DNA of 64,000 nucleotides. It comes from Mongoliibacter ruber. Lineage in GTDB: Bacteria; Bacteroidota; Bacteroidia; Cytophagales; Cyclobacteriaceae. Of the stretch, positions 1,061 through 17,713 are shown in pieces. The first letter of the stretch is position 1; every line of letters begins with the position of its first letter. The stretch spans positions 267,108-331,107 of the forward strand of contig NZ_PVTR01000001.1 of assembly GCF_003003005.1 (NCBI RefSeq), read 5' to 3'. The notes under the pieces were generated by a model. That model saw nothing but the letters and a program-made list of their open reading frames with translations, did not search any database and was not told the DNA's origin. Made by a program: the position numbers and the translations under genes.

Positions 1061-1210
1061 TCGGACTTGTGTTGCCCTGTACCCATAACTTTGGTGCACA
1101 TTATAGGCTCGGGTCTACTCGGCTTAGGGATAGAAGCGGTAGCCCACAGGCCGTAAGCGAAGCGAGCGGACGAGGACTACAAGCGGATAGCCCGACCTTT
1201 GGGAAGCCCC

Positions 1211-1241
1211 AAATAAAAAAGCCTTCCATAATGAAAGGCTT
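1211..1241 (-). terminator. rho-independent terminator for the 1270..1617 gene
   Basis: 7-bp stem AAGCCTT/AAGGCTT (1219-1225/1235-1241) followed on minus strand by TTTTATTT. Confidence 0.6.
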
Positions 1242-1269
1242 CTTAACTTATAAGTGAAGTGTGAATCTG

Positions 1270-1617
1270 TTACAATAAGAAGACGTTGCCGCACGAACCA
1301 GGATCATAATGTTTATCTAGCCTTGCGTTGCTTTCTAAGCTTCGTCTCAGATTGTTCAGTTCATCAGCATTTGTCGCCATTCCTCTGATAAGAGTCTCAG
1401 GAAAGAGGGCCTCGCAATACTGGTGAGCTGTGGTGTTAGATAGGTAAGCGGTGGACTTGACGGTAACATCGAAGCCAGCAATTGCCAACACATTCATGTG
1501 ATGGTCATGTGATACATCGATACTGGTCGTCTGGTCATCAAAATCCGCTGCCAGTCCCGGGCTGAAATTCACGATCATCCCGATCGCAAAAATCATCAAT
1601 AGAAGTAGTTTTTTCAT
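1270..1617 (-). CDS. hypothetical secreted protein
   Basis: ATG verified at 1615-1617; N-terminal hydrophobic signal-like segment MKKLLLLMIFAIGMIVNFSPGLAA. Confidence 0.55.
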   Translation of the reverse strand: MKKLLLLMIFAIGMIVNFSPGLAADFDDQTTSIDVSHDHHMNVLAIAGFDVTVKSTAYLSNTTAHQYCEALFPETLIRGMATNADELNNLRRSLESNARLDKHYDPGSCGNVFLL

Positions 1618-1737
1618 TGATAGAGGTTATGTGAATTATGTGAGACTCTAATTTGGCTAAGAAGTCCAAAAAGGTGTAGGACAAAAAAAAGCATCCCTAT
1701 TGGAATGCATTTTAAGAGTGATAGCCCCAGTAATTAT

Positions 1738-1974
1738 TTACTCATTCGAGTCTTTTTTATCAGTTCTCCTGCGGGTGGTCTTGGCTGGCTCTGCCTTGGC
1801 GGGTGCTTTCCTGAGGTAAGGAAATCCGATGGCCAGCAGCTGCTCTGCCTTCGCCGCATTGATTTTGCTAAGATCCACCATTCCCAGCTTAGTGCCGCAA
1901 AGCCCCGGAACGATGCCTACTACAAGGTAGGCACCGTCGAGGATAGGGGTGGTTTTTGGCTTTTTAGCTGACAT
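1738..1974 (-). CDS. hypothetical protein
   Basis: ATG at 1972-1974; co-oriented with neighbours; competing plus-strand ORF 1705..1971 judged antisense artefact. Confidence 0.4.
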   Translation of the reverse strand: MSAKKPKTTPILDGAYLVVGIVPGLCGTKLGMVDLSKINAAKAEQLLAIGFPYLRKAPAKAEPAKTTRRRTDKKDSNE

Positions 1975-1976
1975 GA

Positions 1977-2519
1977 TTAGACAGCAGGGGTGAATGGAAG
2001 CGCATCAATAAACAACGGCGGGTAGAATATTGACCTTACGGTGAACATCGTCATCTTTTCCCCGGCTACTTCGCCTGGTACTTCGATGCTGCCTTCATCT
2101 ATCTCTGCCCACAATCCCGGTGTACCCAAGATCAGGAACTGTCCTCCCATCAATGGCTTGAATCCCACTACCAAAGGTCTGTTCCTGTTGGCTCTCAACC
2201 ATCCGCAAAGGTGGCTGTTCATGGCATTCTTCATGATGGTAAGCGTATTTTCAAAGCTTTTCGCTCCTCTGGCTCCTACGAGTTGAGAAGAGAAAGCATT
2301 TTTTTCAAGAGATCCTTCAAACTTGTGGAATTGCTTTGTTGATTTCATCACAAAGGCAGAAGCGCCTAAATCAACATAATCCTTGGACGCTGTGCCGGCA
2401 CTCAGGTCGGGAAGGTCAGGAAATGTTTCAATGTCGTGATATGCAGCAATGGCCACTTCTACCTGTAAACCGGCAGATTCCTCAAGCTCAATCTCTCCTA
2501 CAAAATCGTATAAGTTCAT
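1977..2519 (-). CDS. hypothetical protein (head-morphogenesis module)
   Basis: ATG at 2517-2519, tightly packed downstream of capsid gene. Confidence 0.5.
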   Translation of the reverse strand: MNLYDFVGEIELEESAGLQVEVAIAAYHDIETFPDLPDLSAGTASKDYVDLGASAFVMKSTKQFHKFEGSLEKNAFSSQLVGARGAKSFENTLTIMKNAMNSHLCGWLRANRNRPLVVGFKPLMGGQFLILGTPGLWAEIDEGSIEVPGEVAGEKMTMFTVRSIFYPPLFIDALPFTPAV

Positions 2520-2529
2520 GGCTGTTGGA

Positions 2530-2895
2530 TTAAAGTTTGACTACTATGGTGGAGTTTTTCTCTACCAGTTTTTTGCAGAGTGCCAGGTCTGCTGCGATGT
2601 CAGATGGAGACAATGCCCCATCTTTGGTGCGCATGCCTTTGGTGACCCTGTACTTTTCTTTACCGATGGTGATCACCGGACCTTTGTTTTCTTTGGAACC
2701 GCTATCCTTAAGCTGATCCTTCAATTCCTCGACATACTCTTTCGCATCAGCTACCTCATTTTTGGCTTCTTCGAGTTCTTTTGCAAGCTTCTCGTTTTCG
2801 GCTTTAAGGGCAGTATTTTCTGCGGTAAGGGTGTCGATTATTTCTTCTGGAGAAGGAGCGGCAGTTGGTGCCGCTCCTGTTTTTTTATTGCTCAT
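2530..2895 (-). CDS. hypothetical coiled-coil protein
   Basis: ATG at 2893-2895, 2 nt after capsid gene; E/K-rich heptad region. Confidence 0.5.
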   Translation of the reverse strand: MSNKKTGAAPTAAPSPEEIIDTLTAENTALKAENEKLAKELEEAKNEVADAKEYVEELKDQLKDSGSKENKGPVITIGKEKYRVTKGMRTKDGALSPSDIAADLALCKKLVEKNSTIVVKL

Positions 2896-2896
2896 C

Positions 2897-3967
2897 TTAG
2901 GCTTGGTCGTTTACGTACAAGTTTTCAAGGTCCCTGAACTGGAAGCCGATCATGTACTTGACGATCGCTTCGTATCCGTGCAGGTTCTCTACTATTTTAC
3001 CGACTTTGTTGGCGTCAGATACCTGGTTCATACCAAGGATCATGTTGCCTTTGTGGGTCATGATGATCCTTCTGGAATCTTTCATCCAAGTCACAGGCTT
3101 GATGGTCAATCGACCTCCTGTACCTTTGAGGATAAATTCTTTTCCTTCCTCGATATCGCTTTTCGCGATTCCCTGACCGGTACCGAATAGCTTGTTGACA
3201 TTGATGGCCAAATCTTCCTGAGCACCAAAGCCCACAGTCGCTACCATGCCTTTGTTTTTGTGTACTTCTGGAATGACAGACCACATGTCCAAGAATGCAT
3301 CATAGGCAGTCGTCTGGTCGTAAGCACCACCAGATCCAGCCACCAAAAGGTTGGTAGCAGCCAGTTCAGATTCGATGATGTGGTGAGGACCGTCGCAGAT
3401 CACTTTGTTATCCACATCTTCCCACTTGACGCCGTGTGTCTCTGGAGATTCACCCGCTAGGGTTTCAGCTTTAGCTCTGTACACGATCTCGTCGAAATAT
3501 ACCAAGTCCCCAATAGCATAGGTCTCAGTGCCATCGAAAGGAGCAATCGTGCCCGGATTGAAAGACAGGTAGAAGTTGTCATTGATCTCTTGCGCGATCC
3601 TTGCAAACTCCTGTTCCCATACCCACTGGCCAAATGGAATTTCCTTCGCATTTGGATCCAGCATCTCAGCCATAAAGGATTCTCTTACTTCTTCCGGGAT
3701 GATCTCGATGATCTTCATCGCACCCTGAGGAGTCAAGATCCTTTCGGACCATTTTCTACCGCCCTTGGCTGTTTTTATGTTCGTGTTCAGACGCCTTACG
3801 CCTCTGTCCACTACCATCTTTTTCAGCGTCCTGGGCGAGCGAACGTTTCTAAGGACATCGATGTCCTTGGCTACGTCCAAGCCGTTCAGCATCTGATGGA
3901 TCAATTTTTTGTCGTATATCTCGACATACTTCTTGATCGCTTCGATGTCAGTTCTTACTTGTGACAT
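2897..3967 (-). CDS. putative phage major capsid protein (HK97-like)
   Basis: 356 aa, directly downstream of ClpP-type prohead protease/scaffold gene; size and position typical of MCP; no motif-level proof. Confidence 0.5.
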   Translation of the reverse strand: MSQVRTDIEAIKKYVEIYDKKLIHQMLNGLDVAKDIDVLRNVRSPRTLKKMVVDRGVRRLNTNIKTAKGGRKWSERILTPQGAMKIIEIIPEEVRESFMAEMLDPNAKEIPFGQWVWEQEFARIAQEINDNFYLSFNPGTIAPFDGTETYAIGDLVYFDEIVYRAKAETLAGESPETHGVKWEDVDNKVICDGPHHIIESELAATNLLVAGSGGAYDQTTAYDAFLDMWSVIPEVHKNKGMVATVGFGAQEDLAINVNKLFGTGQGIAKSDIEEGKEFILKGTGGRLTIKPVTWMKDSRRIIMTHKGNMILGMNQVSDANKVGKIVENLHGYEAIVKYMIGFQFRDLENLYVNDQA

Positions 3968-4016
3968 GTTGGTGGTTGTTAGTTGGTTTAGTTTTCAAAT
4001 GGATGTAGGGAATGGC

Positions 4017-5246
4017 TTATTGGCCTATTCCCATTTCTGCTCTTTGTCTTTTGATTTCCACATCTGTCTCAGAAGTGAAATTGACAGCGCCTTCTTCTCC
4101 ATCGATCTTGTCAGGATCATCGGATTTTGCGTTGACTGGCTTCACGCCGCTCTTGCGATAGGCTTCGACAGTTACCTTGAGGTTTTTGACCTCAGTGTCC
4201 AGCTTTCCTTTTTCGGTAGAGAGCGTCTCTTTTTCCTCAGTCAATGAAGAGACAAGTGTCTCGGCGTTGGCTTTTTCGGTAGAGAGGTTTGTGATCTCTT
4301 CGGAAAGTGTGGCAGTGGCTTCGGTAATCCTGTTCTGGACTTCCTCATCGGTGAATTTTTCACCGGCATCGTGGTACGCCTGAAGCTCGGCCTTGATGGC
4401 AGCGAGATCTTCGGCGGTCACAGTCTCCTTGGAAAGGAGAGAAAGTGAGTTTTCGAAATTCATATCTGTATTGGTGGGATTTGGTGTCGGAGTGGGTGCA
4501 GGCGGATCCTGCCCTTCCTGCTTGGCAGGGGTCAGCGTGAAAGTCTTTCTGAGGTGGTTGGTAATGCGGGTGATCAGTGACTCTTCGCTGTGCTGTTCTT
4601 TTTTGTAGAGATTCATCACCTCCCCAAAAGCCATGTTGGTAATGTTTGAAGGAGGCGCATCCTCAGACTCGTAGTCTTCTATCTCGTTTACAAATCCTGC
4701 TTCCTTGGCTTCTTCAGCAGTGAGGAAATGATCTTTGCCATCGAAATATTTGTCTTGGATGTCCTCTTTGGACTGGCCGGAGATGGAGGCGAGGCGATCA
4801 ATGATCACTCCTTCGTACTTTTCCATCATATCTGCGGTATCGCGCATCTTGTCAGCATTACCAAAGGCAATTCCGCTGGCGCGGTGGATCATCAGAAAAG
4901 CATTCTTCGCCGTGTGGATAGTCTTACCTGCGAGTAGGATATAGCCCCCAGCGGAAGCGGCCAGACCGTCATTGTAGGTATGGACATCCTTCTTGCTGTT
5001 GGCGATGACATTGAAAATCGGGAAAGCGTGGTACAGGTAACCTCCAGGGCTGTTGATGTAGATGTTGATCCTATCGAAGTCTTTTTCAAGCTTCTTGAAT
5101 TCACTGACAAACTTGTCAGCCTGGTTTTTCATCTTATAGGTGTCCAGATCAAAGTCGGGAATCGCACCGTATAGCATGATATCGACAGAGGACTTGTCTT
5201 CTGCCTTATTGAAAATCTCGTAAAAACCGGTAGTCTGCTTGCTCAT
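4017..5246 (-). CDS. ClpP-family (S14) prohead protease fused to acidic coiled-coil scaffold-like C-terminus
   Basis: N-terminal ClpP core (NSPGGY...AASAGGYILLAGK...MIHRASG) then Pro/Thr linker and E/K-rich coiled coil. Confidence 0.8.
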   Translation of the reverse strand: MSKQTTGFYEIFNKAEDKSSVDIMLYGAIPDFDLDTYKMKNQADKFVSEFKKLEKDFDRINIYINSPGGYLYHAFPIFNVIANSKKDVHTYNDGLAASAGGYILLAGKTIHTAKNAFLMIHRASGIAFGNADKMRDTADMMEKYEGVIIDRLASISGQSKEDIQDKYFDGKDHFLTAEEAKEAGFVNEIEDYESEDAPPSNITNMAFGEVMNLYKKEQHSEESLITRITNHLRKTFTLTPAKQEGQDPPAPTPTPNPTNTDMNFENSLSLLSKETVTAEDLAAIKAELQAYHDAGEKFTDEEVQNRITEATATLSEEITNLSTEKANAETLVSSLTEEKETLSTEKGKLDTEVKNLKVTVEAYRKSGVKPVNAKSDDPDKIDGEEGAVNFTSETDVEIKRQRAEMGIGQ

Positions 5247-5308
5247 CTTGCGCTTTGTTTAGCACAAGATGTGGATTGATAGGGGTCGGGTATAGGACGT
5301 TTTTTGGC

Positions 5309-5716
5309 CTAAATGAGGGGAATCTGAAGGGAAAGGGAGATAATAGTTTCGCGGTTGTCTGCATTGCCGGCACCGGAATCACGGGTGTATTGGAAGGTCA
5401 TCGGTGTATCGTCCGAACCTAAAAAGTGCCGCTCTCCGTTGGCGGTAGTGAGGTAAGCCATCACTTCTTTTCCTGCAAACTGAGAGTGGTAATCTGAATC
5501 CCTGGGAATGGTACTTCTCACAGCAAAGGAAATGACATCACCCTGATCAGTGTCGTTGGATTCTTCTCTGATATCGGATCGCTCTAATACCAGTGGGGCT
5601 TCTTTGAAAAAATCAATCAGGTCCTGTGCAGATGGAAAGCCATCCGTCAAGGTCAGCTGGGGATGGTGGGAAGCGAGTCCTATATATAAGGAGGTGATGA
5701 GGGATATTCTTTCCAT
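5309..5716 (-). CDS. hypothetical protein (signal-peptide-like N-terminus)
   Basis: ATG at 5714-5716; MERISLITSLYIGLAS hydrophobic start. Confidence 0.45.
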   Translation of the reverse strand: MERISLITSLYIGLASHHPQLTLTDGFPSAQDLIDFFKEAPLVLERSDIREESNDTDQGDVISFAVRSTIPRDSDYHSQFAGKEVMAYLTTANGERHFLGSDDTPMTFQYTRDSGAGNADNRETIISLSLQIPLI

Positions 5717-5755
5717 GAGGGAAATTTACAAAGTGTATTTTTTTACCTCTTGACA

Positions 5756-6190
5756 CTACCAAAGTGGCAATATGTTGCGCATTTGCTCTTTATTCTTGTA
5801 GCGTTGCCATTGCTTGTAAGCAGTATCAGGTTCCAGTTCTTCAAATGAAATGTCGTATTTGTCCATAAACTTTCTGATGGCTTCGGTTGCTTCCATCCCC
5901 CCTTCCACAGCTGCCTCTATGTAGAGCAGCATTTTTGTTTTGAATTCGTTTTCCATCATTCGGGAAAGAGTGTACAACTTATATATGGAGAGGTATTTAC
6001 ATACGACTGTTATTCTGACTTGACTATCTGTGGTATTTTCTATGTATTGGCGGATCTGATCGGGGTTGCGTTGTTTGTAGGGACTGCAAAAAATCATCTG
6101 GGTGATGTTGAGGTGTTTGGAATAGCCATAGTCCCGCTTGAGCATTTTTTTCACAGGCTTAGATACCGGAATTTCGTAGGCTTTCATCAT
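5756..6190 (-). CDS. hypothetical protein
   Basis: ATG at 6188-6190; 144 aa. Confidence 0.5.
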   Translation of the reverse strand: MMKAYEIPVSKPVKKMLKRDYGYSKHLNITQMIFCSPYKQRNPDQIRQYIENTTDSQVRITVVCKYLSIYKLYTLSRMMENEFKTKMLLYIEAAVEGGMEATEAIRKFMDKYDISFEELEPDTAYKQWQRYKNKEQMRNILPLW

Positions 6191-6248
6191 ACGTGAAAAA
6201 TACTTTGTATTATCATAAGAATGTAGGACAAATAAAGACCCTATTTTA

Positions 6249-6533
6249 TTAGAGATTATACGTCTTGATAAATGCTTCCCTTACCTTCTTGTCGATGGCA
6301 AAGTAATCTTTGAGCGCAGTCAGGTAATCATCCTCCGTAGCCGGGACAGCGATGGTCTCCATTATTTCGAGTGCGGTAGATTCGTGTTTGAATACATCAC
6401 ATCCCCTGGCATGTAGAAATGAACCGTCATTCTGTGCAGTCACAGAGACGAAATAGAGTAATGCTTTTCCCGAAATAGACATTTCTAATTTGTAGGTTTT
6501 GCGTTGGGAATCGCTACGGAAGTACTTTGCCAT
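6249..6533 (-). CDS. hypothetical protein
   Basis: track ORF starts at a TTG; first ATG at 6531-6533 (MAKYFRSD...) with TAcaaTTTT -7-like box just upstream. Confidence 0.5.
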   Translation of the reverse strand: MAKYFRSDSQRKTYKLEMSISGKALLYFVSVTAQNDGSFLHARGCDVFKHESTALEIMETIAVPATEDDYLTALKDYFAIDKKVREAFIKTYNL

Positions 6534-6619
6534 AAAATTGTATTTTTCCAATGAGGTCAAAAAATGGGGTAGTAAGTAATAATTACATGTAAAATAAGTG
6601 ATTTTTTCGTGAATTAAAA

Positions 6620-6880
6620 AAACGTGTTACAAATGTTACATTTGTAGTATTTCCCCCTATCCTATTGATATTCTGAAATTTAGGTATGTAACATTTTTAT
6701 CAAAAAATGTTACAAGTCTGTAGTATTTGTTGACATTGTTACATGCAATATGATTGCAGGTAACAAACATTTGTTGACAAGACTGTCATTTTGTTGACAT
6801 GTGTTGACATGGAAAACCCTTGTTTATTGGCTTTATTACCCTATTTTTAAAAAATGTAACAAATGTAACAAATGTAACGC
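6620..6880. promoter_or_regulatory. repeat-dense intergenic control region upstream of the RM gene
   Basis: TGTTACA x2 direct (6625-6640); 28-bp palindrome TGTAACATTTTTatcaAAAAATGTTACA (6687-6714); TTGTTGACA x4 (6727-6809); (AAATGTAAC)x3 tandem (6852-6878); TGTAGTATTT x2. Confidence 0.5.
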
Positions 6881-6977
6881 CTTTTTTGAGCGGTGAAATT
6901 TGGTCTAAAACCAAAGCAGACATTTAACATTTTAGTTATAGTACTTTGTAAAGATTGTAACCTTTTTACCTTAACAG

Positions 6978-9900
6978 ATGAGTTTGGAATTGAACGATTA
7001 CATTGGTAATCTGAATAGGCGTTACCGTTTGGGCAATGCCACAGAGCATACTTTTAGAGGAGACCTGCAAAACCTGATCGAAACCCTCGTTCCTGGTGTA
7101 GCTGCTACCAACGAACCAAAGCGGATCAAGTGCGGTGCTCCGGATTATGTCATCACCAAAAAAGATATTCCCATTGGATACATAGAAGCCAAGGATATTG
7201 GAGTCGATCTCAGGTCTAAGGTTTTGAAAGAACAGTTTGACCGGTATAGGGAATCTTTGGAGAACCTGATCATTACAGATTACCTCGATTTCCATTTCTA
7301 TATCAATGGCGAATTGGTGAAGACCATTGCCATAGCAGAAATAAAATCGAATGGGATATCCCCTCTTCCAGCCTTTTTTGAAGAATTTACAGATTTGATC
7401 AGGAGTTTCTGTTCATTCTCCGGACAGACCATCAGAAGTCCGAAGAAACTTGCCGAAATGATGGCGGGTAAAGCAAAGCTTCTTGCCAGGATAATAGAGA
7501 ACTCTCTGAATTCGGATGCATCTGAAGAAGTGGACAGTTCATTGAAAGATCAATACACTGCCTTTCAGCAGATATTGATCAATGATATCAAGACAAATGA
7601 ATTTGCCGATGTATATGCCCAGACGATTGCCTATGGAATGTTTGCTGCACGGCTGTATGATCAGACCTTGGATACCTTCTCCAGAAAAGAAGCTGCAGAA
7701 CTTATTCCAAAATCCAATCCTTTCCTACGGAGGCTCTTCCAATATATAGCTGGATATGATTTGGATGAAAGGATTGTATGGATAGTGGATGCATTAGCGG
7801 ATATTTTCCGTGCCACGGATGTTGCTTCTCTGCTCAAAAACTTTGGGAAGTCAACCAAACAGGAAGATCCTATCATACATTTTTATGAAACTTTCCTTGC
7901 CAACTATGACCCAAAGCTAAGAAAGGCCCGTGGAGTCTGGTACACACCAGAACCGGTGGTAGATTTTATCGTGCGGGCAGTAGATGATATTCTCAAGACT
8001 GAATTTGATCTTCCTGATGGACTGGCCGATACCAGTAAAACAAAAATTAAGGTAGCCATTCCTACTCATGACCACAGGTTTAAGGGCGGTATGCGTGAAA
8101 TAGAGCAGGAATTGCACAGGGTTCAGATACTGGATCCGGCCACTGGCACGGGTACTTTCCTCGCAAAGGTGATAGACCATATCCATCAGACGAAGTTTGC
8201 GAATCAAAAAGGAATATGGTCCCAGTATGTGGAAAATCACCTTATCCCAAGGCTTAACGGATTTGAGTTGCTCATGGCTTCTTATGCCATGGCCCATCTT
8301 AAGCTTGACCTTTTGCTGATGGAAAGCGGATATAAACCAAGCAAGAGTCAAAGATTCCGAGTATATCTGACCAATAGTTTGGAAGAACATCATAAAGACA
8401 CAGGAACTCTTTTTGCCAGCTGGCTTAGTGCAGAAGCCAACGAAGCCAATCAGATTAAGCGGGATACTCCTGTGATGTGTATCATTGGAAACCCTCCCTA
8501 TAGTGGTGAGAGTGCCAATAAAGGCGAATGGATAATGAAGCTTATGGAGGATTACAAAAAAGAGCCCGGAGGAAAGGAGAAGCTTAAAGAAAGAAACCCT
8601 AAATGGATCAATGATGATTATGTAAAGTTTTTACGCTATGGTCAGCATTTTATTGAAAAGAATGGAAGTGGCGTACTAGCCTTTATCAATCCTCATGGAT
8701 TTTTGGACAATCCAACATTTAGAGGAATGCGTTGGAATCTGCTAAAAACCTATGATAAGATTTATACTATTGATCTTCATGGGAATAGTAAAAAGAAAGA
8801 AACAGCACCTGATGGATCGATTGATCAAAATGTTTTTGATATTCAGCAAGGAGTCTCAATAAATCTCTTTATAAAAACAGGTAATAAAAAGTTAAATGAT
8901 TTAGGTAAACTATTTCATTTTGATCTATTTGGTAAACGAGAGATGAAATATGATTTTTTGAAGAAAAATTCCTTGAGATCTATTTCTTATAAAGAAATAC
9001 CAATAAATATTCCTTTGCATTTTTTTGTTGATAAAGATTTTGAATCGAAAAAACAATACGACAATGGATTTTCCATTTCAAAAATTTTCGAATCAAATAG
9101 TGTGGGTATTGTAACGGCAAGAGATCATTTTACCATTCATTCAACAAAAAATGAGTTGAAAAGTACAATAGAGCTATTTATGAGTTTAGAGGATGAAATA
9201 GCTCGTACAAAATTTAAATTGGGAAAAGACGTTAGGGATTGGCAAATTAATTTTGCAAAAAAAGATTTAGAAAAAAACTATCCTCATCAAGGGGTAATAA
9301 CCCAAATTAGCTATCGGCCATTTGATTTAAGATGGACTTTTTACACTGGGAAATCCAAAGGATTTCATTGCTATCCGAGAACAGAAGTAATGAAAAACTT
9401 CACAAAAGAAAATATTGGATTAGTATATAAATTAGGTAATAGCGAAGAAAAGTCCGCCTCAGTCATGGTTTCAAAAAACATGATTGATTTTAGAAGTTGG
9501 TCAAGACCTGGAATGCAAGGAGGAGATTACATTGCTCCGTTGTTTTTATATGACGAAATTGACGATCTTTTTACTAAAAGTAAGTTTTCAAGAGAACCCA
9601 ATCTTAACCCCAAAATCCTTAAAGAAATCGAAAAGGCATTAGGCTTGGGATTTATAGCAGAGCGACCTGAAGGAGATGGAGTTTGTTATGCAGATAGTGG
9701 TGAACTGCGAACTGAGTATAGACAATCATTTGCACCAATTGACCTTCTGGATTACATCTATGCAGTATTGCATAGCCCTGCATATAGGGAGAAGTACAAA
9801 GAGTTTTTAAAGATTGATTTTCCGAGAGTCCCCTACCCTACGGATCAGGAAAGTTTCTGGAAGTTGGTAGAGCTGGGAGGCCAGATCAGAAAACTCCATC

Positions 9901-10208
9901 TGATGGAATCTTCCGATCTACAAAGATTGGATACCGGATATCCGGAGGATGGAGATAATGTGGTAGAAAAACCACATTACAAGAATGGCCAGGTACATAT
10001 AAATGCTACCCAATATTTTGAGAATGTACCACAGGTGGCTTGGGAATTTTACATTGGAGGATATCAGCCAGCACAGAAGTGGCTTAAAGACCGTAAAGGT
10101 CGGCAGCTATCCTATGAGGATATCCTTCACTACCAAAAGATCATTAAAGCCCTTCAGGAAACAGATAGGTTGATGAAGGAGATTGATGAGGTTGGGTCGG
10201 TTTCTTAA
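6978..10208 (+). CDS. MmeI-like Type IIL/IIG restriction-modification enzyme (PD-ExK nuclease + gamma-class N6-adenine MTase + TRD in one chain)
   Basis: N-terminal PDYV...IEAKD (PD-ExK); DPATGTGTFL (AdoMet motif I); IIGNPPYSG (motif IV, ~8493-8504); 1076 aa. Confidence 0.85.
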   Translation: MSLELNDYIGNLNRRYRLGNATEHTFRGDLQNLIETLVPGVAATNEPKRIKCGAPDYVITKKDIPIGYIEAKDIGVDLRSKVLKEQFDRYRESLENLIITDYLDFHFYINGELVKTIAIAEIKSNGISPLPAFFEEFTDLIRSFCSFSGQTIRSPKKLAEMMAGKAKLLARIIENSLNSDASEEVDSSLKDQYTAFQQILINDIKTNEFADVYAQTIAYGMFAARLYDQTLDTFSRKEAAELIPKSNPFLRRLFQYIAGYDLDERIVWIVDALADIFRATDVASLLKNFGKSTKQEDPIIHFYETFLANYDPKLRKARGVWYTPEPVVDFIVRAVDDILKTEFDLPDGLADTSKTKIKVAIPTHDHRFKGGMREIEQELHRVQILDPATGTGTFLAKVIDHIHQTKFANQKGIWSQYVENHLIPRLNGFELLMASYAMAHLKLDLLLMESGYKPSKSQRFRVYLTNSLEEHHKDTGTLFASWLSAEANEANQIKRDTPVMCIIGNPPYSGESANKGEWIMKLMEDYKKEPGGKEKLKERNPKWINDDYVKFLRYGQHFIEKNGSGVLAFINPHGFLDNPTFRGMRWNLLKTYDKIYTIDLHGNSKKKETAPDGSIDQNVFDIQQGVSINLFIKTGNKKLNDLGKLFHFDLFGKREMKYDFLKKNSLRSISYKEIPINIPLHFFVDKDFESKKQYDNGFSISKIFESNSVGIVTARDHFTIHSTKNELKSTIELFMSLEDEIARTKFKLGKDVRDWQINFAKKDLEKNYPHQGVITQISYRPFDLRWTFYTGKSKGFHCYPRTEVMKNFTKENIGLVYKLGNSEEKSASVMVSKNMIDFRSWSRPGMQGGDYIAPLFLYDEIDDLFTKSKFSREPNLNPKILKEIEKALGLGFIAERPEGDGVCYADSGELRTEYRQSFAPIDLLDYIYAVLHSPAYREKYKEFLKIDFPRVPYPTDQESFWKLVELGGQIRKLHLMESSDLQRLDTGYPEDGDNVVEKPHYKNGQVHINATQYFENVPQVAWEFYIGGYQPAQKWLKDRKGRQLSYEDILHYQKIIKALQETDRLMKEIDEVGSVS

Positions 10209-10219
10209 AGTTAAATTTC

Positions 10220-11062
10220 ATGAATAAAGATCAATTGTTAAAAGTGATAGAATCTACAATTGTATCTATCTCTGCCTCTATCCCAATAGCAGCTACTTTT
10301 GCAACTGGATATACAGAATATAGAAACAGTTTACAAGAGCGAAATGTAAAAGAGATAATTTACACCCTCTTTAAGAGCCTTAAATCTTTAGAGGAAAGAG
10401 TTGATAAGGAATATCTAAAATCAGGAGATTTTAAGTCTTTAACAATGAAAGTATGTTTGCATGGTATGGATGAGATTCATGAAGAAAAAAGAAAGTATCT
10501 ATCTTATTTTTTAGCAAACTCTTGTGTTGTTGAAAATTCAAAAGATTTGATTAAAAATTCAGTTTTAGAAACCTTAATGAGGTTGAGCAAATTTGATTTA
10601 ATAGTTCTTAATGTATTATTTGAAGGAGTTAAAGGGGATTTTGGCGAGGTAATTAGAGGGAAAAAAAAATTCGATCTAAACTTTGCCTTTTTGATTTTTG
10701 AAGAAAGCTATGTTACTGGACTTTTACCTCAATATAATGAACTAGATATAAGAATTACCCTTCATTATTTAGAATCAATAGGTGTTATCGAAAATGCAAT
10801 TTCAAGAACATTCAACAGAAATTTTTCAATCGATATCGATGATTATCTTCGATCTAAAAGATTGGATGAAATAATGAATCGGATCCTTGAATTACAGTCA
10901 AGTTTGATGACAACTAATAAAAAAATCGAATTAAGAGAATTAGAAAAGGAACAAAAAGAACTGGTCGGTTTTAACAATCAGATTGAAAAGAATTATAATA
11001 AGCCATATATTATAACAAGTCTTGGGGTTAAAGTTCTGGATTATATTTCCATGATTGAATAA
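10220..11062 (+). CDS. hypothetical protein, RM-island partner
   Basis: ATG at 10220, 11 nt after RM stop; 280 aa, helical, no recognisable motif; very AT-rich. Confidence 0.6.
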   Translation: MNKDQLLKVIESTIVSISASIPIAATFATGYTEYRNSLQERNVKEIIYTLFKSLKSLEERVDKEYLKSGDFKSLTMKVCLHGMDEIHEEKRKYLSYFLANSCVVENSKDLIKNSVLETLMRLSKFDLIVLNVLFEGVKGDFGEVIRGKKKFDLNFAFLIFEESYVTGLLPQYNELDIRITLHYLESIGVIENAISRTFNRNFSIDIDDYLRSKRLDEIMNRILELQSSLMTTNKKIELRELEKEQKELVGFNNQIEKNYNKPYIITSLGVKVLDYISMIE

Positions 11063-11067
11063 AAAAA

Positions 11068-12552
11068 ATGAAAGAAGTCAATTTACTTTCAGTACTTAAT
11101 GCGGATAAAAGTTTGTCAGAGCCTTTACGATCTAATTTTTTTGAACATTACGGAATAAAAGAAAAATTAGGTGAATTCCAAGATTTAGATGTCTTAGTCA
11201 ATGAATTATTGGTTCATAGATTGGAAATATCCATGTTAGATTCATTTTATTTGGGATATTTAATTCCTCAAATAAGTAAAGAATTTGATTTATTAAGAAT
11301 TGGTGATTCAAATATTATTAACATCGAATTAAAGTCTGTAAATACTGGAGAAGCTATTTTAAAACAACTTCTAAGAAATAAATATTATTTGAGTTTTTTT
11401 AAAAAAGATATTAGACTTTTCAGTTTTGTTTCGAGTGAAAAAAAATTATACACACTAGAAAGAAATTCCGAATTAAAAGAATTTGATATTAAAGAATTAG
11501 CAAAATTATTGCATCGGCAAAAAATTGAAGAAGTTGAAAATATTGATAAACTTTTTAATCCCTCAAATTATTTAGTCTCTCCGTTTAATTCAACAAATAA
11601 TTTTTTAGAAAAGAAGTATTTCTTGACTGGGCAACAGGAAGAGTTCAAAAAATCAATTTTATTAGGAATAAATATGGCAGAAGCATCCTATTTCTCCATT
11701 TCTGGTGAGGCAGGAACTGGAAAAACTTTGTTGATTTATGACATAGCGAGAGAATTGAAGGAAAATAATAAAAGGGTTTTAATTGTTCATGTTGGAAATT
11801 TAAATGAAGGCCACTTTTTTTTAATCGATGCATTTCAATGGGAAATAATTTCAATTAAACAGTACAAAGAAACGGATTTTAGCACCTATGACTTAGTCAT
11901 AATTGATGAAACTCAGAGGATTTATCCTAAACAATTAAGGGATATTATTAGCAAAATCGATGCAATTGGAAATAATTGTATTTTCTCTCATGATATTAAA
12001 CAGGTATTGCAAAAAAGTGAAGAGGAAAATAATATTCCAGAACTAATAAAAAAAGAAACTAAAGCTCAGTCTTTTCGACTTTCAAAAAAAATACGAAGTA
12101 ACCTCCATATAACATCCTTCATAAGTTCACTTTTTAATAAAAGCATAAATAATAAAGCTATAGATAAAAGTTGCATTGAGATAAAGTTTTTTGATAGTTA
12201 TCAAGTAACAAAAGCTTATTTAAATTTTAAAACGGAAAAAGGATGGAAAGCTATAAATTACACACCTTCAAGTTTTAATAAATATCCATACGATTCATAT
12301 GCTATAGATTTTACAGAAAGTGTTCACGGTGTAATTGGTCAAGAATTCGACAAAGTAATAGCAGTAATTGACGATCACCTTAGTTATGAAGGGAATGAGC
12401 TGGGAACTGTAAAAAGAGGGAAAAAATTTTATTATAGTTTAGATAAAATGCTTTTTCAAACAATGACCAGAGCAAAAAATAAGTTGTGTATTGTAATAAT
12501 TAATAATCCTTCGGTTTTGGATAGGTGCTTGTCAATTTTAAATGGACAATAA
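11068..12552 (+). CDS. P-loop NTPase with SF1-helicase-like core and NERD-like N-terminal region (DUF2075/Nhi-like)
   Basis: Walker A GEAGTGKT, Walker B LVIIDETQ, helicase-motif-VI-like VHGVIGQEFDKVIAV, N-terminal D-x6-ELK; starts 5 nt after upstream gene. Confidence 0.65.
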   Translation: MKEVNLLSVLNADKSLSEPLRSNFFEHYGIKEKLGEFQDLDVLVNELLVHRLEISMLDSFYLGYLIPQISKEFDLLRIGDSNIINIELKSVNTGEAILKQLLRNKYYLSFFKKDIRLFSFVSSEKKLYTLERNSELKEFDIKELAKLLHRQKIEEVENIDKLFNPSNYLVSPFNSTNNFLEKKYFLTGQQEEFKKSILLGINMAEASYFSISGEAGTGKTLLIYDIARELKENNKRVLIVHVGNLNEGHFFLIDAFQWEIISIKQYKETDFSTYDLVIIDETQRIYPKQLRDIISKIDAIGNNCIFSHDIKQVLQKSEEENNIPELIKKETKAQSFRLSKKIRSNLHITSFISSLFNKSINNKAIDKSCIEIKFFDSYQVTKAYLNFKTEKGWKAINYTPSSFNKYPYDSYAIDFTESVHGVIGQEFDKVIAVIDDHLSYEGNELGTVKRGKKFYYSLDKMLFQTMTRAKNKLCIVIINNPSVLDRCLSILNGQ

Positions 12553-12565
12553 AATTCATGTTACT

Positions 12566-14131
12566 TCAAGATAAACTTTTAACGCACTGTCCGATTATCC
12601 ACTCCTGCACCGGTGGTGTGACGGCATTGCCACATTGCTTTACCTGGTCACGCTGATTGCCGAGTATGATGTAGTCAATATCGAAAGCCATGGAAGCCTT
12701 GACCTCAGGAGCTTTGATCATTCGGTAATAGCAATCTTCAATCAGGGGTTTTTGGTAGTTGATGAGGTAGGATCTGTCACGGGTGTTTACTGTACCGATT
12801 GGCTCAGATATCTTGGAAGCCTGATGACTGCCGTAATAGTATTGGATAAAGCTGCTCCAAGATTCATGTGTGACTATGCCATTGTTGATATTACTCGTCT
12901 GTGCCGGCATAGATTCGGTTGAAGGTTTTGACATGGATTTCCCTTTGTTCTGGACAACCAAGGGAACTCCCATCAGCGAATGGTTGATTCCTCCTGCAGT
13001 AATGGTTGACATGGGATGATTGGCGGGTTTTGCTTCACCCGTTTTGTTCATCTCAATTATCCATGGAGTCACTAGAGCTGAGGTTTGTCTGGTAGTTTGG
13101 GTAAGAAAAGGATCTGTTACCTTTTTGGCATTTTTCATTTGAGATCCATTTTCTGTTTTGATGACCATTGGAGTGGCTAAAGAATGACTTAAGTCAGTGC
13201 ATTGAGTTCCTATAGGTGATTCTATTGTGCTTTTTACCCTTCCGTTTACTCCGCTTACCTGACGTGTTTGAATTAAAAGCGGATCCACTCCGTACCTGTC
13301 CAATCCCCACTGAATCCTTTTGAGGGTATTGGGTGAAAGCGCCTTTTTCCTTTCTCCGATCTTTGTACCCAAATCGCTCCAATCAATGGCATTGAATGCC
13401 GCATAGTAGTAGGGTTCTACCACTGTGCCATCTTTCGGGCATTTATATTGATATTGGAAGCGGTATTTCCCGAATTTTTTTTGAGGGTTTTTCCAAACCT
13501 GCACGGCGTGGACATCCTTTCCGCAACATGGACAATGTGCCAATGGACGGTAATCAAGGTCAGGAGCTTTGTTTCCTTTCTTCCAGAAAACGACATACAT
13601 CCTATCCCTACTCTGGGGAGTTGGCCAGAAGTGCATGGAATTCAGGTAAAGACATTTGTGCTCATATCCAAGTCGGTGCATGGCTGCCAACCAAACATCG
13701 AATAGTACCCACTGAGTACGGGCTTCCACCACATTTTCGACAATCACAATTTCATAATCATGGTATTCTGCAAATCTGCATACGTCCCACATCGTGGCTC
13801 TGCTCCGTTCGGTGGATGGGTCAATGATTCCCTTGTCAAAAAGGTCGATTGTTGCTTTTACATTTTTGTGACGATTGCCACCTGCTGGACTGTGGGTGGT
13901 GCATTCTGGAGAAGTGATCAGAATATTGGTGCTTGGGTATCTTCTGGGATCACAGGCAGATATATCAGTGCAATCGTGAAGCGTATCGGGAAAATTGCTG
14001 TTGTGGGTATCAATGGCAAGTTTCCAGTGATTCAAAGCCATTTTGACTTCTACTCCTGCTTTTCTTGCTCCCTGCGAACTGCCACCGGCACCGCAAAACT
14101 GGTCTGTTGCTGTTATATATGAGTTCTTCAT
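12566..14131 (-). CDS. dcm: DNA (cytosine-5) methyltransferase, orphan
   Basis: FCGAGG (motif I), IVIVENV (motif VI), QCGNAVTPPV (motif X); motif IV is atypical SPEC rather than PCQ. Confidence 0.8.
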   Translation of the reverse strand: MKNSYITATDQFCGAGGSSQGARKAGVEVKMALNHWKLAIDTHNSNFPDTLHDCTDISACDPRRYPSTNILITSPECTTHSPAGGNRHKNVKATIDLFDKGIIDPSTERSRATMWDVCRFAEYHDYEIVIVENVVEARTQWVLFDVWLAAMHRLGYEHKCLYLNSMHFWPTPQSRDRMYVVFWKKGNKAPDLDYRPLAHCPCCGKDVHAVQVWKNPQKKFGKYRFQYQYKCPKDGTVVEPYYYAAFNAIDWSDLGTKIGERKKALSPNTLKRIQWGLDRYGVDPLLIQTRQVSGVNGRVKSTIESPIGTQCTDLSHSLATPMVIKTENGSQMKNAKKVTDPFLTQTTRQTSALVTPWIIEMNKTGEAKPANHPMSTITAGGINHSLMGVPLVVQNKGKSMSKPSTESMPAQTSNINNGIVTHESWSSFIQYYYGSHQASKISEPIGTVNTRDRSYLINYQKPLIEDCYYRMIKAPEVKASMAFDIDYIILGNQRDQVKQCGNAVTPPVQEWIIGQCVKSLS

Positions 14132-14184
14132 TTTGATTTTAGATTTTAGATTTAAGAATTAAGATTTAAAAAGGGATAATCTTT

Positions 14185-14595
14185 TCAGAGGTCTGCCTCC
14201 ATTACTTTAAGCTCTGCTTCGAGGCTTGCAATTTTATTGATGGTATTGATATAGCGTTGATCCTCCTCAATTGGAAAAAGGGAATCCCATTTGGTGACTA
14301 CTTTTGCCAGTTTGTTTTTGTATTCTGTGACCTTTCCTTTCTTTGCTCTGAGCTTATTAATCTTTTGCTGATCAAGCGTTTTTTGGCTGGATTCACAATG
14401 TCCCCACTTGAATTCTACATGGGCTTTGGGGTGTTGAACCTGAGCTAAAGCAGCCCGGTATTTGAAATACCAATCCCATTTATTACGGATTTCAAATCGC
14501 ATATCATCCCATCTGATGATTTGAAGGAGGTTTCCCCCCTTCTTATCAAAAACCTTGATTAGGACAAAGTGGGCATTATCATATACTGTAATCAT
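14185..14595 (-). CDS. hypothetical protein
   Basis: ATG at 14593-14595 overlapping upstream stop (ATGA). Confidence 0.5.
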   Translation of the reverse strand: MITVYDNAHFVLIKVFDKKGGNLLQIIRWDDMRFEIRNKWDWYFKYRAALAQVQHPKAHVEFKWGHCESSQKTLDQQKINKLRAKKGKVTEYKNKLAKVVTKWDSLFPIEEDQRYINTINKIASLEAELKVMEADL

Positions 14596-16100
14596 GATTG
14601 CCCTCCTTTCTTTGGCTCAAACAATGGATATCCTTTGATTCGGGATATTTCCTGATTGAATCTGGCCCATACGTTTTCGTCTTTGAACTTGAAGTGGATG
14701 GTGCCTTTTTTGTATCCTTTGATCTCGAAAAATTCCCAGTCAAACCACTGCCCAAATTCTACCTGTGGCAATCTTTTGCAGTCTGGATTTTTCTCCAAGT
14801 AGGAAAGCATATCTGATTCATTTCTGAAATAGACCGGATATGCCCTGAATTTTACGCTTTGATCCAGTAGAACTTGGCCCTCTCTTTCCACCATAAATTC
14901 ATGGTTGCACCGATCATACAGCGATATGGATTTGTTGTAATCCTTTCCTGTGATGTAGCATAGGGCTTTGAGTAGGTCCTCTATTTTTTCCAAGTTGTGT
15001 GAACCGTACCTAACAGCAAATTTTCCACTCCAGCTTATCTCGGTCAATCCGTCCAGGATGAATTTTTGATTGACCAGGTAATGGCTATTGGTTTTCCATC
15101 CTTCGACTGCATACCTGTTTTCATGGTAGTGCTTTGTGATGCGGTCAAATACATCTTCCAATGCCCGATCCATTCTTGACCTTTGTGTACCCACTATCAT
15201 TTGGATCATGGCATAGATATTCTTCATCGTGAAGGGTATCTTTTGCTGCGTCTCTACAAATTTGTTGATGTCATCCTTCACTGATTTGGTGACATACTTC
15301 CCCATGTTCATCTTATCCAGCACATAGTTCCAAGCGGATTTTTGCAGATCTTTTTTGAATTCCTCACGGGTGGTCTTGGCTTCGTCTGTGGTCAGGTTGA
15401 GACCTATTTTGGATTTGTAGAAAGTTTTGGTAAGCTCATTCATCCGGACAGCAGCATTAAGCTGTTCATCGAAGATTTTGACCGATCCGACATACCTTCC
15501 TACTATATCCCGGACAAAGTTGTAGCGCTGCAATCCTTCCACTTGCGCTTCTTCCTCCTCATCCATAAAGAATCCTTCAAACTCGCTTTCTCCGGATTTT
15601 GGTTTTCTGAGGATGATATAAGCCACTTCCACACCTGTCTTTCGTTCCGCATTGGAAAAGCAGTCACCCAGATAATCCATCTGTCCATAATCATCTATGA
15701 TCCTCTTGAGCACTTTTCTTGTTCTGTTGTAGATGTTGGCCACGGTTTCCCAATTGCAAAGTGCCCTGATCTCGCAGCCTTCGGGAGCAATTTCCCAAGC
15801 ATGAAGGATATGCCGTGCATCTTCACTAAATGGAGGATTCATTATTATGTGTGAAATATGGCTTATCTGAGCGCTTTTAACTTTGAAGAAATCATCCTCG
15901 ATTACCCTGCATTTGAGCATAGCGCGGAGTTTGGGTTCTTTTTCAGAGGCAATTACTTCTGCGCCTCGGATAAGACAATAATCCACCATATTTCCAGAAC
16001 CTGCATGAGGCTCCAGTATTTTGGATTCTGGGAAAGCAATCCCTTCGGTGATCCGCTCGATGACTGCTTCGGGTGTTGGGTAAAAGTCTGAGTTAAACAT
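14592..16100 (-). CDS. N6-adenine DNA methyltransferase with ~330-aa C-terminal domain of unknown function
   Basis: FYPTPEAV, EPHAGSGN (motif I), NPPF (motif IV) in first ~110 aa; remainder unassigned. Confidence 0.7.
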   Translation of the reverse strand: MFNSDFYPTPEAVIERITEGIAFPESKILEPHAGSGNMVDYCLIRGAEVIASEKEPKLRAMLKCRVIEDDFFKVKSAQISHISHIIMNPPFSEDARHILHAWEIAPEGCEIRALCNWETVANIYNRTRKVLKRIIDDYGQMDYLGDCFSNAERKTGVEVAYIILRKPKSGESEFEGFFMDEEEEAQVEGLQRYNFVRDIVGRYVGSVKIFDEQLNAAVRMNELTKTFYKSKIGLNLTTDEAKTTREEFKKDLQKSAWNYVLDKMNMGKYVTKSVKDDINKFVETQQKIPFTMKNIYAMIQMIVGTQRSRMDRALEDVFDRITKHYHENRYAVEGWKTNSHYLVNQKFILDGLTEISWSGKFAVRYGSHNLEKIEDLLKALCYITGKDYNKSISLYDRCNHEFMVEREGQVLLDQSVKFRAYPVYFRNESDMLSYLEKNPDCKRLPQVEFGQWFDWEFFEIKGYKKGTIHFKFKDENVWARFNQEISRIKGYPLFEPKKGGQS

Positions 16101-16119
16101 ATTTTTTGTAATGCCTGCT

Positions 16120-16290
16120 TTATCCTCCCGGCATGGAGACTAAGTGATAAAATGAAAGCACCTTATCACGAAGTCTCAAGGACTGAAGGCAAGGTGGAAC
16201 GGAATAAAACCTCTCCCCCGAGCTATCGGGGCCCTTCCTATTTATGCCGTAGTACCTTGTGTGGATTTGATGTCAGTTAGGACCTGTGTC
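16120..16290. promoter_or_regulatory. conserved non-coding block, copy B (homologous to 940-1060), directly 5' of the 502-aa MTase
   Basis: shares three conserved cores with copy A in same order and orientation. Confidence 0.4.
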
Positions 16291-16346
16291 CTTGATGCGA
16301 GTAAATTTGTGTGTTCATAGTATCACCACTTTCTTGATTTCAGATT

Positions 16347-16934
16347 TCAGATTGGGTTCAGTTCAGAAGTTTCAAATGATTCTTCATTGATAGGTTCAAT
16401 AGTTTTCAGATATTTTTTATTGAGATTTAAATTGATAATCTGACCTTTTATTCCCGATTTGATCAGAGAATTGAAATTTGATTCGTTGAAAGCAATAAGT
16501 ACTGAAGGGCCTCCAGAATTTGCCTTTGCCTTAATTCCTTCAACCGTATAAAAGCTTAGTCTACCTCTGATGAAAAGCATACCATAAGCTTTTTCCCAAG
16601 CCCAATCAAAAAAGGTAGTTGTTTCAGTTCTTGCAAAAATTAAAGCAATACCATTTTTGTGAGCTGCCAGCTTTTCTAGCCAAACTTTTGATTGGTCACC
16701 GTACGGGGGATTACACCATACTCTTCCAAACCAGTCTTTAGTAAGCCCATTTTCCACTTTGGAAAAATGGGTTGAAGCAGTATCCCATGGTCGGTTAATA
16801 GGCGAGCATGGATCAAGATCAAAAGGACCTAATGCATTAATAATTTCGGGTGGTGTTAGCCATTCATCATTCTTCATTTTGGAAGATTGATGAGACCCTA
16901 TTCCGTTTTTTTTCTTGTTTCTTGGCTCTAGCAT
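16347..16934 (-). CDS. dam: phage-type DNA N6-adenine methyltransferase (Dam, T1/pfam05869-like)
   Basis: WCNPPYGD catalytic motif and family-typical flanks. Confidence 0.85.
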   Translation of the reverse strand: MLEPRNKKKNGIGSHQSSKMKNDEWLTPPEIINALGPFDLDPCSPINRPWDTASTHFSKVENGLTKDWFGRVWCNPPYGDQSKVWLEKLAAHKNGIALIFARTETTTFFDWAWEKAYGMLFIRGRLSFYTVEGIKAKANSGGPSVLIAFNESNFNSLIKSGIKGQIINLNLNKKYLKTIEPINEESFETSELNPI

Positions 16935-16936
16935 TT

Positions 16937-17179
16937 TTAAGTTCTTTTCTTCAGAGTATCCAATTTTTCCTTTAATTCTTTGAGGGATTGTAATGCGTCA
17001 ATCACTTCGTTCATACCGTTGATGGCATCATTTAACTCACTATCTTTGGCAGCTTCGACTTTGTGAAAGTTGACTTTATCAAGGATTTGTTCTTTGGCTT
17101 GTTCGATACTATTGGCGAGTACTTTTGACTTCATTTTCTTTCCAAAAAACTCGAAGTAAACTTCATATTCCTGTAGCAT
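16937..17179 (-). CDS. hypothetical coiled-coil protein
   Basis: ATG 17177-17179; stop abuts Dam start. Confidence 0.45.
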   Translation of the reverse strand: MLQEYEVYFEFFGKKMKSKVLANSIEQAKEQILDKVNFHKVEAAKDSELNDAINGMNEVIDALQSLKELKEKLDTLKKRT

Positions 17180-17190
17180 GGTATGGGATT

Positions 17191-17487
17191 TTAGAGGGTA
17201 GACGAAAGTTTCTTTAGTCCTTCATTGAAGTCTTTCATCATTGCTTCGATGTTCTGATTTATATCAGCATCTCTCTGAACCTCCAGTTCATCTATGTACA
17301 GATCAAGGGCGCAGATATATCGGTAGAGTTCAGGGCTTTTTGTAAACATTCTGTGAATGTCTCCCAAGCCAGTTTCTCTGGGCACAAAGTCCTCAATCTT
17401 TGGTCTTGGTGGATTTGAACAGGTTGTATTGTTTTTCCTTGTGGTATCGTCCATATTTTCTATTTGTGATGTGCTGTGAGCGGTCAT
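17191..17487 (-). CDS. hypothetical protein (start uncertain; overlaps HNH gene as drawn)
   Basis: internal Met codons would shorten it to ~17454 or ~17349 and remove the overlap. Confidence 0.35.
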   Translation of the reverse strand: MTAHSTSQIENMDDTTRKNNTTCSNPPRPKIEDFVPRETGLGDIHRMFTKSPELYRYICALDLYIDELEVQRDADINQNIEAMMKDFNEGLKKLSSTL

Positions 17488-17713
17488 GGTTTAGATGGCA
17501 TCGCTGACAGAGAGCCGCCAAATTGCTGAACCGGTTGTTACTTCTGTCCCGGTCGATGTGAGCTACGGTCAGGATCACTTTGGATCCAGTGTCTGGGTGA
17601 GGCTGGTAGTTAACAGCGCCACACCATTCACAGTGATTCTTTGCGCGTTGAAACCGTATCAGTCTACTGATCAGGCTCCATTTGGGATGGTATTTGGAGT
17701 AGTCTATGGGCAT
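17393..17713 (-). CDS. HNH endonuclease
   Basis: HCEWCG...H-x3-D...N...CQRCHLNHD zinc-finger/HNH layout. Confidence 0.8.
   Translation of the reverse strand: MPIDYSKYHPKWSLISRLIRFQRAKNHCEWCGAVNYQPHPDTGSKVILTVAHIDRDRSNNRFSNLAALCQRCHLNHDRSQHITNRKYGRYHKEKQYNLFKSTKTKD

Follow-up and report, generated by a model that had tools for sequence, protein, structure and literature searches.

A repeat array beside the capsid operon of a Mongoliibacter ruber prophage is a candidate iteron-type replication origin

The window analyzed here, a stretch of 64,000 nucleotides from Mongoliibacter ruber, comprises a prophage (positions 1 to ~29,000) and chromosomal DNA (from ~29.1 kb). A gap of 260 bp between two divergent genes of this prophage is packed with short repeats, and the question raised by the locus is what these repeats are for. 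The initial annotation preferred to read them as operators controlling the adjacent restriction-modification (RM) genes and offered an iteron-like array as an alternative. Comparative evidence from related prophages favors and supports the alternative: with slightly better than even confidence, we consider the region 6625–6887 to be the iteron-type replication origin of a temperate phage, which would be served by the primase-helicase of the same phage. The array is located between the early and replication genes and the capsid operon, and a cargo island of three genes lies outside the array proper (6978–12552, plus strand).

A re-scan of the gap recovered every repeat element listed in the initial annotation at its given coordinates, and the position of the gap between divergent genes was borne out as well, with the correction that the left gene starts at the ATG at 6533 and not at the TTG at 6560; its 94-aa product then matches the NCBI annotation. 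Thirteen related words, TGTWACA or the variant TGTTGACA, were counted across 6625–6879: TGTTACA at 6625, 6634, 6708 and 6737; TGTAACA at 6687, 6855 and 6864; TGTAACG at 6873; GGTAACA at 6759; and TGTTGACA at 6728, 6772, 6792 and 6802. TGTWACA is a quasi-palindrome with a near-identical reading on both strands, and TGTTGACA is a variant longer by one base. Because TGTTGACA and TGTTACA interchange in homologous alignment columns of related prophages (L014 and L015 among them), they are variants of one site. The gap also contains TTGTTGACA at 6727, 6771 and 6791 with GTGTTGACA at 6801, three tandem AAATGTAAC units at 6852–6878 (Tandem Repeats Finder: period 9, 3.4 copies), and TGTAGTATTT duplicated at 6643 and 6719.

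The overall frequency of the word in the 64-kb window is at chance level, TGTTACA and its complement occurring in 9 copies with 7.9 expected; seven of the nine exact TGTWACA copies are packed within 246 bp. Simulating the window 200 times with a second-order Markov model placed at most two copies in any 260 bp, and when the gap itself was shuffled 5,000 times, the count averaged 0.11 and again never rose above two, versus seven observed. The clustering of words in the gap is therefore far beyond chance, and the 13 words exceed the minimum of six short (5–8 bp) words, clustered beyond chance, that we adopted as one mark of an origin. Of the prophage, 29.5 kb can be seen in the window, and nowhere else in it is the DNA strongly repeat-dense. 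A DNA similarity search of positions 5700–7300 against GenBank phages gave no match, an Rfam search of the gap returned only sub-threshold chance matches, and literature searches for the words yielded nothing relevant beyond OmpR-type consensus sites.

Related prophages were recovered via the capsid protein and the products of the first two genes of the capsid operon, p94 (6249–6533, minus strand) and p144 (5756–6190, minus strand). All of them (L001–L003, L005–L008, L011–L017, L035, L054 and L068) have a GTWAC-rich gap of 250–300 bp directly upstream of p94, with 7–13 GTWAC pentamers per 300 bp against 0.25–0.6 expected, and each examined genome segment carries one array. The layout is conserved too. 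In the orientation of the capsid operon, the block GAAAAAAGGCGTTACAwTGTwACA is followed by an AT-rich stretch and ATAGGAATAGAG..GGGGTTTT, then by inner words and the GTTACATGCAAcAatgTTGCATGTAAC palindrome, after which comes the block AATGTAACAwTGTAACrCGTTTTTT.

These comparisons bear directly on the view that the array is a set of operators for the RM genes. It lies 90–350 bp upstream of a divergent type IIG RM gene, and L017 has the same type IIG gene in the same position (3–2372), as would be expected of such operators. However, more than 15 related prophages keep the array, most of them without adjoining RM genes. The island of the window encodes a type IIG RM enzyme of 1076 aa (HSDR_N, N6_Mtase/MmeI_Mtase and Type_ISP_C domains in Pfam), a 280-aa protein and a 494-aa SLFN-g3/DUF2075-like ATPase, and has a GC content of 27–38% versus 43–47% for the phage. 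The contents of this slot on the outer side of the array vary among relatives and occur in either orientation: nothing special was found in L001 and L014, RadC-like genes in L003, L006, L008 and L012, minus-strand genes without an assigned function in L002, and co-directional Type I RM, AAA_13 and McrBC genes in L011 (1668–8654). Since the relatives hold different contents there, the low-GC RM island is cargo in a recurrent slot. A controller gene for the RM system, suspected in the initial annotation, is missing as well: no small helix-turn-helix (HTH) or C-protein-like gene was found within 6978–12552, and the presumed operators do not travel with the RM genes. C-protein operators (C-boxes) are likewise palindromic sites upstream of an RM gene, but here the C gene is absent, the sites are kept without RM genes, and they are far more numerous. 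Control of the adjacent RM genes by the array is thus already contradicted by the comparative data and appears extremely improbable.

The architecture of the array points in another direction. Its outer part on the capsid-operon side (6625–6640, plus strand) consists of two tandem TGTTACA words with a 9-bp period (minus strand AATGTAACATTTGTAACACGTTTTTTT), and the block at this position, AATGTwACAwTGTAACrCGTTTTTT, is kept in all family members. Next comes the palindrome TGTAACATTTTT-ATCA-AAAAATGTTACA (6687–6714), with perfect 12-nt arms, a 4-nt spacer and two inverted words; equivalent inverted pairs are located at the same place in L003, L012, L014, L015 and L017. The segment 6728–6766 contains TGTTGACA at 6728 and then a central palindrome, TTGTTACATGCAAT-ATG-ATTGCAGGTAACAA, which holds TGTTACA at 6737 and GGTAACA at 6759. 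The GTTACATGCAAcAatgTTGCATGTAAC palindrome is kept in L003, L006, L012, L014, L015 and L017. This second palindrome of the gap (6736–6766) was absent from the list in the initial annotation, as was an overall dyad with 36-nt arms at 6617–6652 and 6852–6887 that are 81% complementary.

Three TGTTGACA words in the same orientation (6772, 6792 and 6802; 6772–6809, plus strand) form one flank of an AT-rich tract at 6810–6854, a candidate DNA-unwinding element with up to 80% A+T in the AT profile. Its other flank is the outer array of the cargo side (6855–6887, minus strand), in which TGTAAC(A/G) recurs three times in tandem at 9-bp intervals (6855, 6864 and 6873) alongside the boundary word GTAACGCCTTTTTT (minus strand AAAAAAGGCGTTACATTTGTTACATTTGTTACA). 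The tract is therefore enclosed by a plus-strand TGTTGACA run and a minus-strand TGTAAC run, with three opposed words on each side where at least two would be expected of an origin; opposed words around an AT-rich tract were also found elsewhere, for example in L017 and L443. Beside the outer array, all relatives keep ATAGgAATAGAG..GGGGTTTT preceded by an AT-rich stretch, and the boundary word of the cargo side is conserved family-wide and recurs in unrelated replicons.

An origin of this type would be expected to come with an initiator-helicase encoded by the element itself, and the candidate word-binding initiator is an 842-aa primase-helicase (19168–21696, minus strand). The protein matches DUF5906 in Pfam (E 5e-18) and is labeled 'primase-helicase family protein' by NCBI, and its family profile matches the helicase domain of the primase-polymerase of phage NrS-1 (PDB 6K9C/6K9E, E 1e-12), indicating an NrS-1-like SF3 helicase core. 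This fused primase-SF3 helicase was found in all relatives with a visible early region.

Whether the word changes together with this protein could be followed in five lineages: the window, L442, L443, L444 and the pair L009/L010. L442 (primase 50%, p144 homologue 21% identical) shares its GTWAC words with the window, as well as the two boundary blocks. L443 (primase 46%), in which p144 is the second gene after the array, has the same architecture built of TGTGACA/TGTCACA words. In L444 (primase 42%), a compact array stands ~13 nt past the primase stop codon and consists of three AAATGTAAC units, the palindrome TGCAACATTGTTGCA (with GTTACTGCAACATTGTTGCATGTTAC as the local form of GTTACATGCAAcAatgTTGCATGTAAC) and the boundary word GTTACGCGTTTTTT. 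Eight genes and 4 kb separate this array from the downstream p144 homologue (16549–17022) and the p135 homologue that follows it, neither of which has an array in front. On the contigs of the more distant relatives L009 and L010, no primase homologue appears in the database listing; their capsid proteins show 45% identity, and their capsid operons open with a divergent p144 homologue behind an array of the same architecture made of unrelated words, AGTCCA/TGGACT and AGTWCT. The p144 homologues of L442, L009 and L010 are comparably distant from that of the window (21%, 19% and 23% identity). At the level of sequence, the identity of the word, and in L444 also the position of the array, follow the primase-helicase and not p144 or the capsid operon.

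Two other candidate binding proteins were considered. The product of p144 was favored at first, on account of the divergent p144 and different words of L009 and L010, and was dropped because the p144 of L442 is equally divergent and accompanied by the same words, and because L444 separates p144 from the array. The cI-like HTH_3 repressor (28368–29033) was rejected, as no words were found near its own gene. The proteins p94 and p144 are encoded next to the array and are probably not its binding proteins; their AF2 models (pLDDT 95 and 88, respectively) had no convincing fold match in PDB.

By analogy with the origins of staphylococcal pathogenicity islands (SaPI) and of P4, the 842-aa primase-helicase would recognize the words, assemble on both flanks in opposite orientations, melt the AT-rich tract and prime bidirectional synthesis. 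SaPI origins have been described as 6–12 penta- or hexanucleotide iterons with an AT-rich center and at least two opposed iterons on each side, the iterons being bound by the C-terminal winged helix of a self-loading helicase (PMC9371898); judged by this analogy, the layout of the array matches the description. Origins of SaPIs and other phage-inducible chromosomal islands (pri-rep-ori, with a self-loading Rep) and the array have in common about a dozen short 5–7-bp iterons, two opposed word sets around an AT-rich tract, a (primase-)helicase encoded by the element and, in L444, an array abutting the 3' end of the helicase gene. PriRep5 of SaPI5 is a fused primase-SF3-type helicase, too (PMC9371898). 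The differences are that those elements are satellites of Gram-positive bacteria while the array belongs to a temperate phage of Bacteroidota, that the helicase here is DUF5906/NrS-1-like, and that the array is located 3–12 kb downstream of the helicase gene, beside the capsid operon, in the window as in most relatives. In addition, the array is longer and carries TGTWACA and TGTTGACA as two forms of its word, as well as two internal palindromes. Because of the distance of 12 kb and the different helicase family, we did not assign it to the SaPI-type pri-rep-ori modules.

P4 offers the second comparison. In its ori and crr, the alpha primase-helicase binds type I iterons (TGTTCACC) through its C-terminal domain. 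An octamer-size word in both orientations, a fused primase-SF3 helicase and cis sites located kilobases from the alpha gene are shared features; P4, however, needs two sites, ori and crr, versus one visible cluster here, and both the word and the protein family differ. That the array may work like a SaPI or P4 origin is the best-supported reading of these comparisons.

Arrays of the same design in other replicons are consistent with an origin. The exact pattern AAAAAGGCGTTACA-N2-3-GTWACA was found in 46 metagenome and 15 IMG/VR stretches, some of which are coding coincidences without further words. At least nine other lineages, none related to this phage, have true arrays behind the 14-nt AAAAAGGCGTTACA, at GC contents of 26–65%; examples within the L023–L083 set are L027 (8380–8402), L073 (~6990), L052 (5401–5422) and L043 (12334–12356). 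In two lineages of 51% and 26% GC, the arrays lie inside replisome-organizer genes (Phage_rep_org_N in Pfam), where AAAAAGGCGTTACA encodes K-K-A-L in the linker. Others are located at the 3' ends of primase/helicase genes (VapE-like, Zn_Ribbon_Prim, RepB_primase and DUF3631 in Pfam) and, in one marine group, ahead of a Terminase_2 gene. When all of the lineages with the boundary word were searched for a common protein, only generic XRE-type repressors came up.

Triple GTTACA arrays gave at least 120 matches in IMG/VR, of which 89 stretches from at least 64 lineages were analyzed. The number of arrays was initially taken as evidence of a special word and was withdrawn when two permuted hexamers also gave at least 120 matches; the count is thus uninformative about the word, and weight can be given only to the contexts and to the boundary word that the replicons share. 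Among the matches listed, the helicase and primase genes with a GTTACA array at the 3' end include pri-rep-like pairs of CHC2-primase and DUF927/Cch genes as well as DUF5906/DUF3854 genes. The contexts fit the junction of replication and packaging modules; they favor an origin where the array abuts or lies in a replication gene and are ambiguous where it abuts a terminase gene. A broader proposal, which we regard as improbable, is that AAAAAGGCGTTACA with GTWACA repeats would be a cross-phyla origin signature of replicons with unrelated initiators (DUF5906, VapE-like, DUF3631, RepB_primase and Zn-ribbon primase-helicases, and replisome organizers), read by a common factor or by convergently tuned DNA-binding domains; in the present phage the origin would stand beside the capsid-operon promoter, coupling replication to late transcription.

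The uniqueness of the array in each segment and the same-design GTTACA arrays beside replication genes of unrelated phages and satellites thus speak for an origin, while several observations weigh against it. The distance between the array and the primase gene is 12.3 kb in the window and 3–6 kb in cargo-free relatives. SaPI origins abut rep, and a position immediately 3' of the helicase gene is typical of SaPIs, not of P4; this position was found only in L444 and not in the window. In all family members except L444, the array is directly upstream of the capsid operon, and in L009 and L010 the start of this operon has an array too, although made of other words, so the position of the array may matter for the operon; the absence of a primase in these two rests on the database listing and not on full sequence. 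No primase homologue was found in the 10 kb upstream in L015, the only part of that region visible. An origin would also require the candidate initiator to bind the words through a sequence-specific (winged-helix) domain, putatively in its C-terminus, and the segment to support replication. Finally, GTTACA arrays located 90–230 nt upstream of Terminase_2 genes in at least 12 other IMG/VR lineages are equally compatible with a packaging function.

Some packaging sites are built of repeated words, as in the R sites of lambda cosB, pacL/pacR of SPP1 and the hexamers of P1 pac. The array would then be a cos or pac site, its words bound by a small-terminase-like protein and the DNA cleaved between the arrays. 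It shares with known packaging sites the repeated short words flanking a central segment, the position at the head of the morphogenesis genes and the single copy per genome; the junction of early and head genes is also where cos sites of integrated cos phages are located. A conserved HNH gene (17393–17713; 76–81% identical in L002, L003 and L443) precedes the array, resembling the HK97-like layout HNH-cos-terS. Among the matches listed, GTTACA arrays lie just upstream of Terminase_2 (small terminase) genes in the unrelated lineages mentioned above and within 0.6–3 kb of Terminase_6 (large terminase) genes in at least seven lineages. A lineage-invariant block beside lineage-specific words also recalls the invariant cosN of lambda beside its phage-specific cosB. 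However, searches of Pfam, PHROGs and PDB sequences revealed no recognizable terminase beside the array, although these libraries cover such phages poorly, and p94 and p144 had no match to a small-terminase fold. The word follows the primase and not the first proteins of the head operon, and the same-word array of L444 is 4 kb from the head genes, abutting the 3' end of the primase gene. Moreover, the same boundary word occurs inside replisome-organizer genes in two lineages, and no consistent contig ends were observed at the array, although such ends are uninformative here. A packaging role therefore appears unlikely.

Outside the array, a conserved block, AAAGTACtATAACTAAAAtgTTAaA (6929–6956, minus strand), was found ~50 nt from its edge and 22–49 nt upstream of the RM start codon. 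This AAAGTACnnAACTAAAA..TTAGA block is present outside the array in every family member, with a near copy just before the start codon of p94, and the related AAAATAGTACTAA lies inside the arrays of L009 (4319–4338) and L010 (3128–3160), whose words differ. It may be, for example, a promoter, a host-factor site or a cleavage site.

The neighborhood of the capsid operon suggests a third function, control of late transcription. A putative promoter of Bacteroidota type (6590–6626, minus strand), with a T-run/TTG, a 19-nt spacer and the TAnnTT box TTATTTTA at 6590–6597, is located directly 3' of the proximal word pair. In relatives, TA and TT of the promoter-like box and the upstream TTT are invariant alignment columns, and the 19-nt spacing is kept in L001, L005, L007, L014 and L017; a sigma-70 promoter scan was not informative for a Bacteroidota host. 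The capsid operon needs its own promoter, since the upstream genes of relatives finish in terminator-like hairpins. This promoter probably abuts the array, and a dual role of the region is therefore possible. If the whole array were a late-promoter control region, its words would be bound by a phage activator or repressor switching on the capsid operon. Such a function would be in line with the conserved TTG-N19-TAnnTT, which would center the proximal pair at about –45 to –60, and with the array adjoining the capsid operon in almost every relative. The p144 family (316 representatives in a 1.84-billion library), which invariably occupies the first or second position of the capsid operon, also speaks for it: about one-third of its members are long forms of 240–300 aa carrying a C-terminal HTH similar to sigma-70 region 4 or DnaA_C (domain IV).

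However, 13 sites over 260 bp and an AT-rich core far exceed the needs of a promoter, and in the visible phage no array-like second cluster was found at any other phage promoter. In L009 and L010 only 33–35 nt separate the proximal pair from the start codon, too few to accommodate a promoter downstream of it. Nor does the word co-vary with p144, and in L444 the compact array, made of the same words, stands away from the capsid operon and directly beside the primase gene. Late-promoter control as the function of the array appears as unlikely as packaging. Operators of a dimeric regulator, as proposed in the initial annotation, may be confined to the two words beside the capsid-operon promoter and would leave the L444 array next to the primase-helicase gene unexplained. 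An attP site was also considered and rejected, since the array is intact in the middle of the prophage in an integrated element.

Besides p94 and p144, the capsid-proximal module encodes p135 (5309–5716), a ClpP-type protease/scaffold (4017–5246) and the capsid protein (2897–3967), all on the minus strand. It is closed by a RadC (JAB-domain) gene (246–935), as in every relative; in some of them a second RadC-like gene is located just outside the array. The early genes are also on the minus strand, and several methyltransferases are encoded in the prophage. Three genes of DNA-methyltransferase type cluster at 12566–16934, coding for a C5 methylase (521 aa), a DUF4942-linked methylase (502 aa) and a Dam-like protein (195 aa), with a gene for a 136-aa protein among them, which suggests heavy self-modification. 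Between the start of the C5 methylase and the upstream 136-aa gene there is a short gap with a 7-bp tandem repeat, ATTTTAG, in 5.6 copies (14130–14169).

Two relatives have unusual genes in the corresponding regions. In L015, the place taken in other relatives by the primase-helicase is occupied by genes for a 918-aa protein with an HNH_4 domain and a weak match to the Cas9 alpha-helical lobe, followed by an SF2 helicase (1191–5487). L444 carries an RVT_1 reverse transcriptase gene (14881–15837) between the origin-like array and the capsid operon, which could belong to a retron or a diversity-generating element. In the chromosome beside the prophage end, positions 33166–38022 encode a 1618-aa protein with DUF3686, DUF7902 and AAA domains; a PspA gene comes before it, as do two genes (210 and 674 aa) that gave no Pfam match.

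The repeats of the gap are real, conserved and functional-looking. A tempting mis-annotation is corrected, as the repeats are not RM operators, and the recurrent cargo slot outside the array, holding type IIG RM, Type I RM with McrBC, or RadC-like genes, will be useful in the mining of defense islands. The capsid, terminase and replication genes of these prophages are nearly invisible to current profile libraries. If the array is indeed an origin, a widespread prophage family of Cyclobacteriaceae (Bacteroidota) would gain its first candidate pair of origin and initiator, the array and the primase-helicase, and the pair could be used for Bacteroidota replicons and for studying how NrS-1-like primase-helicases are loaded.

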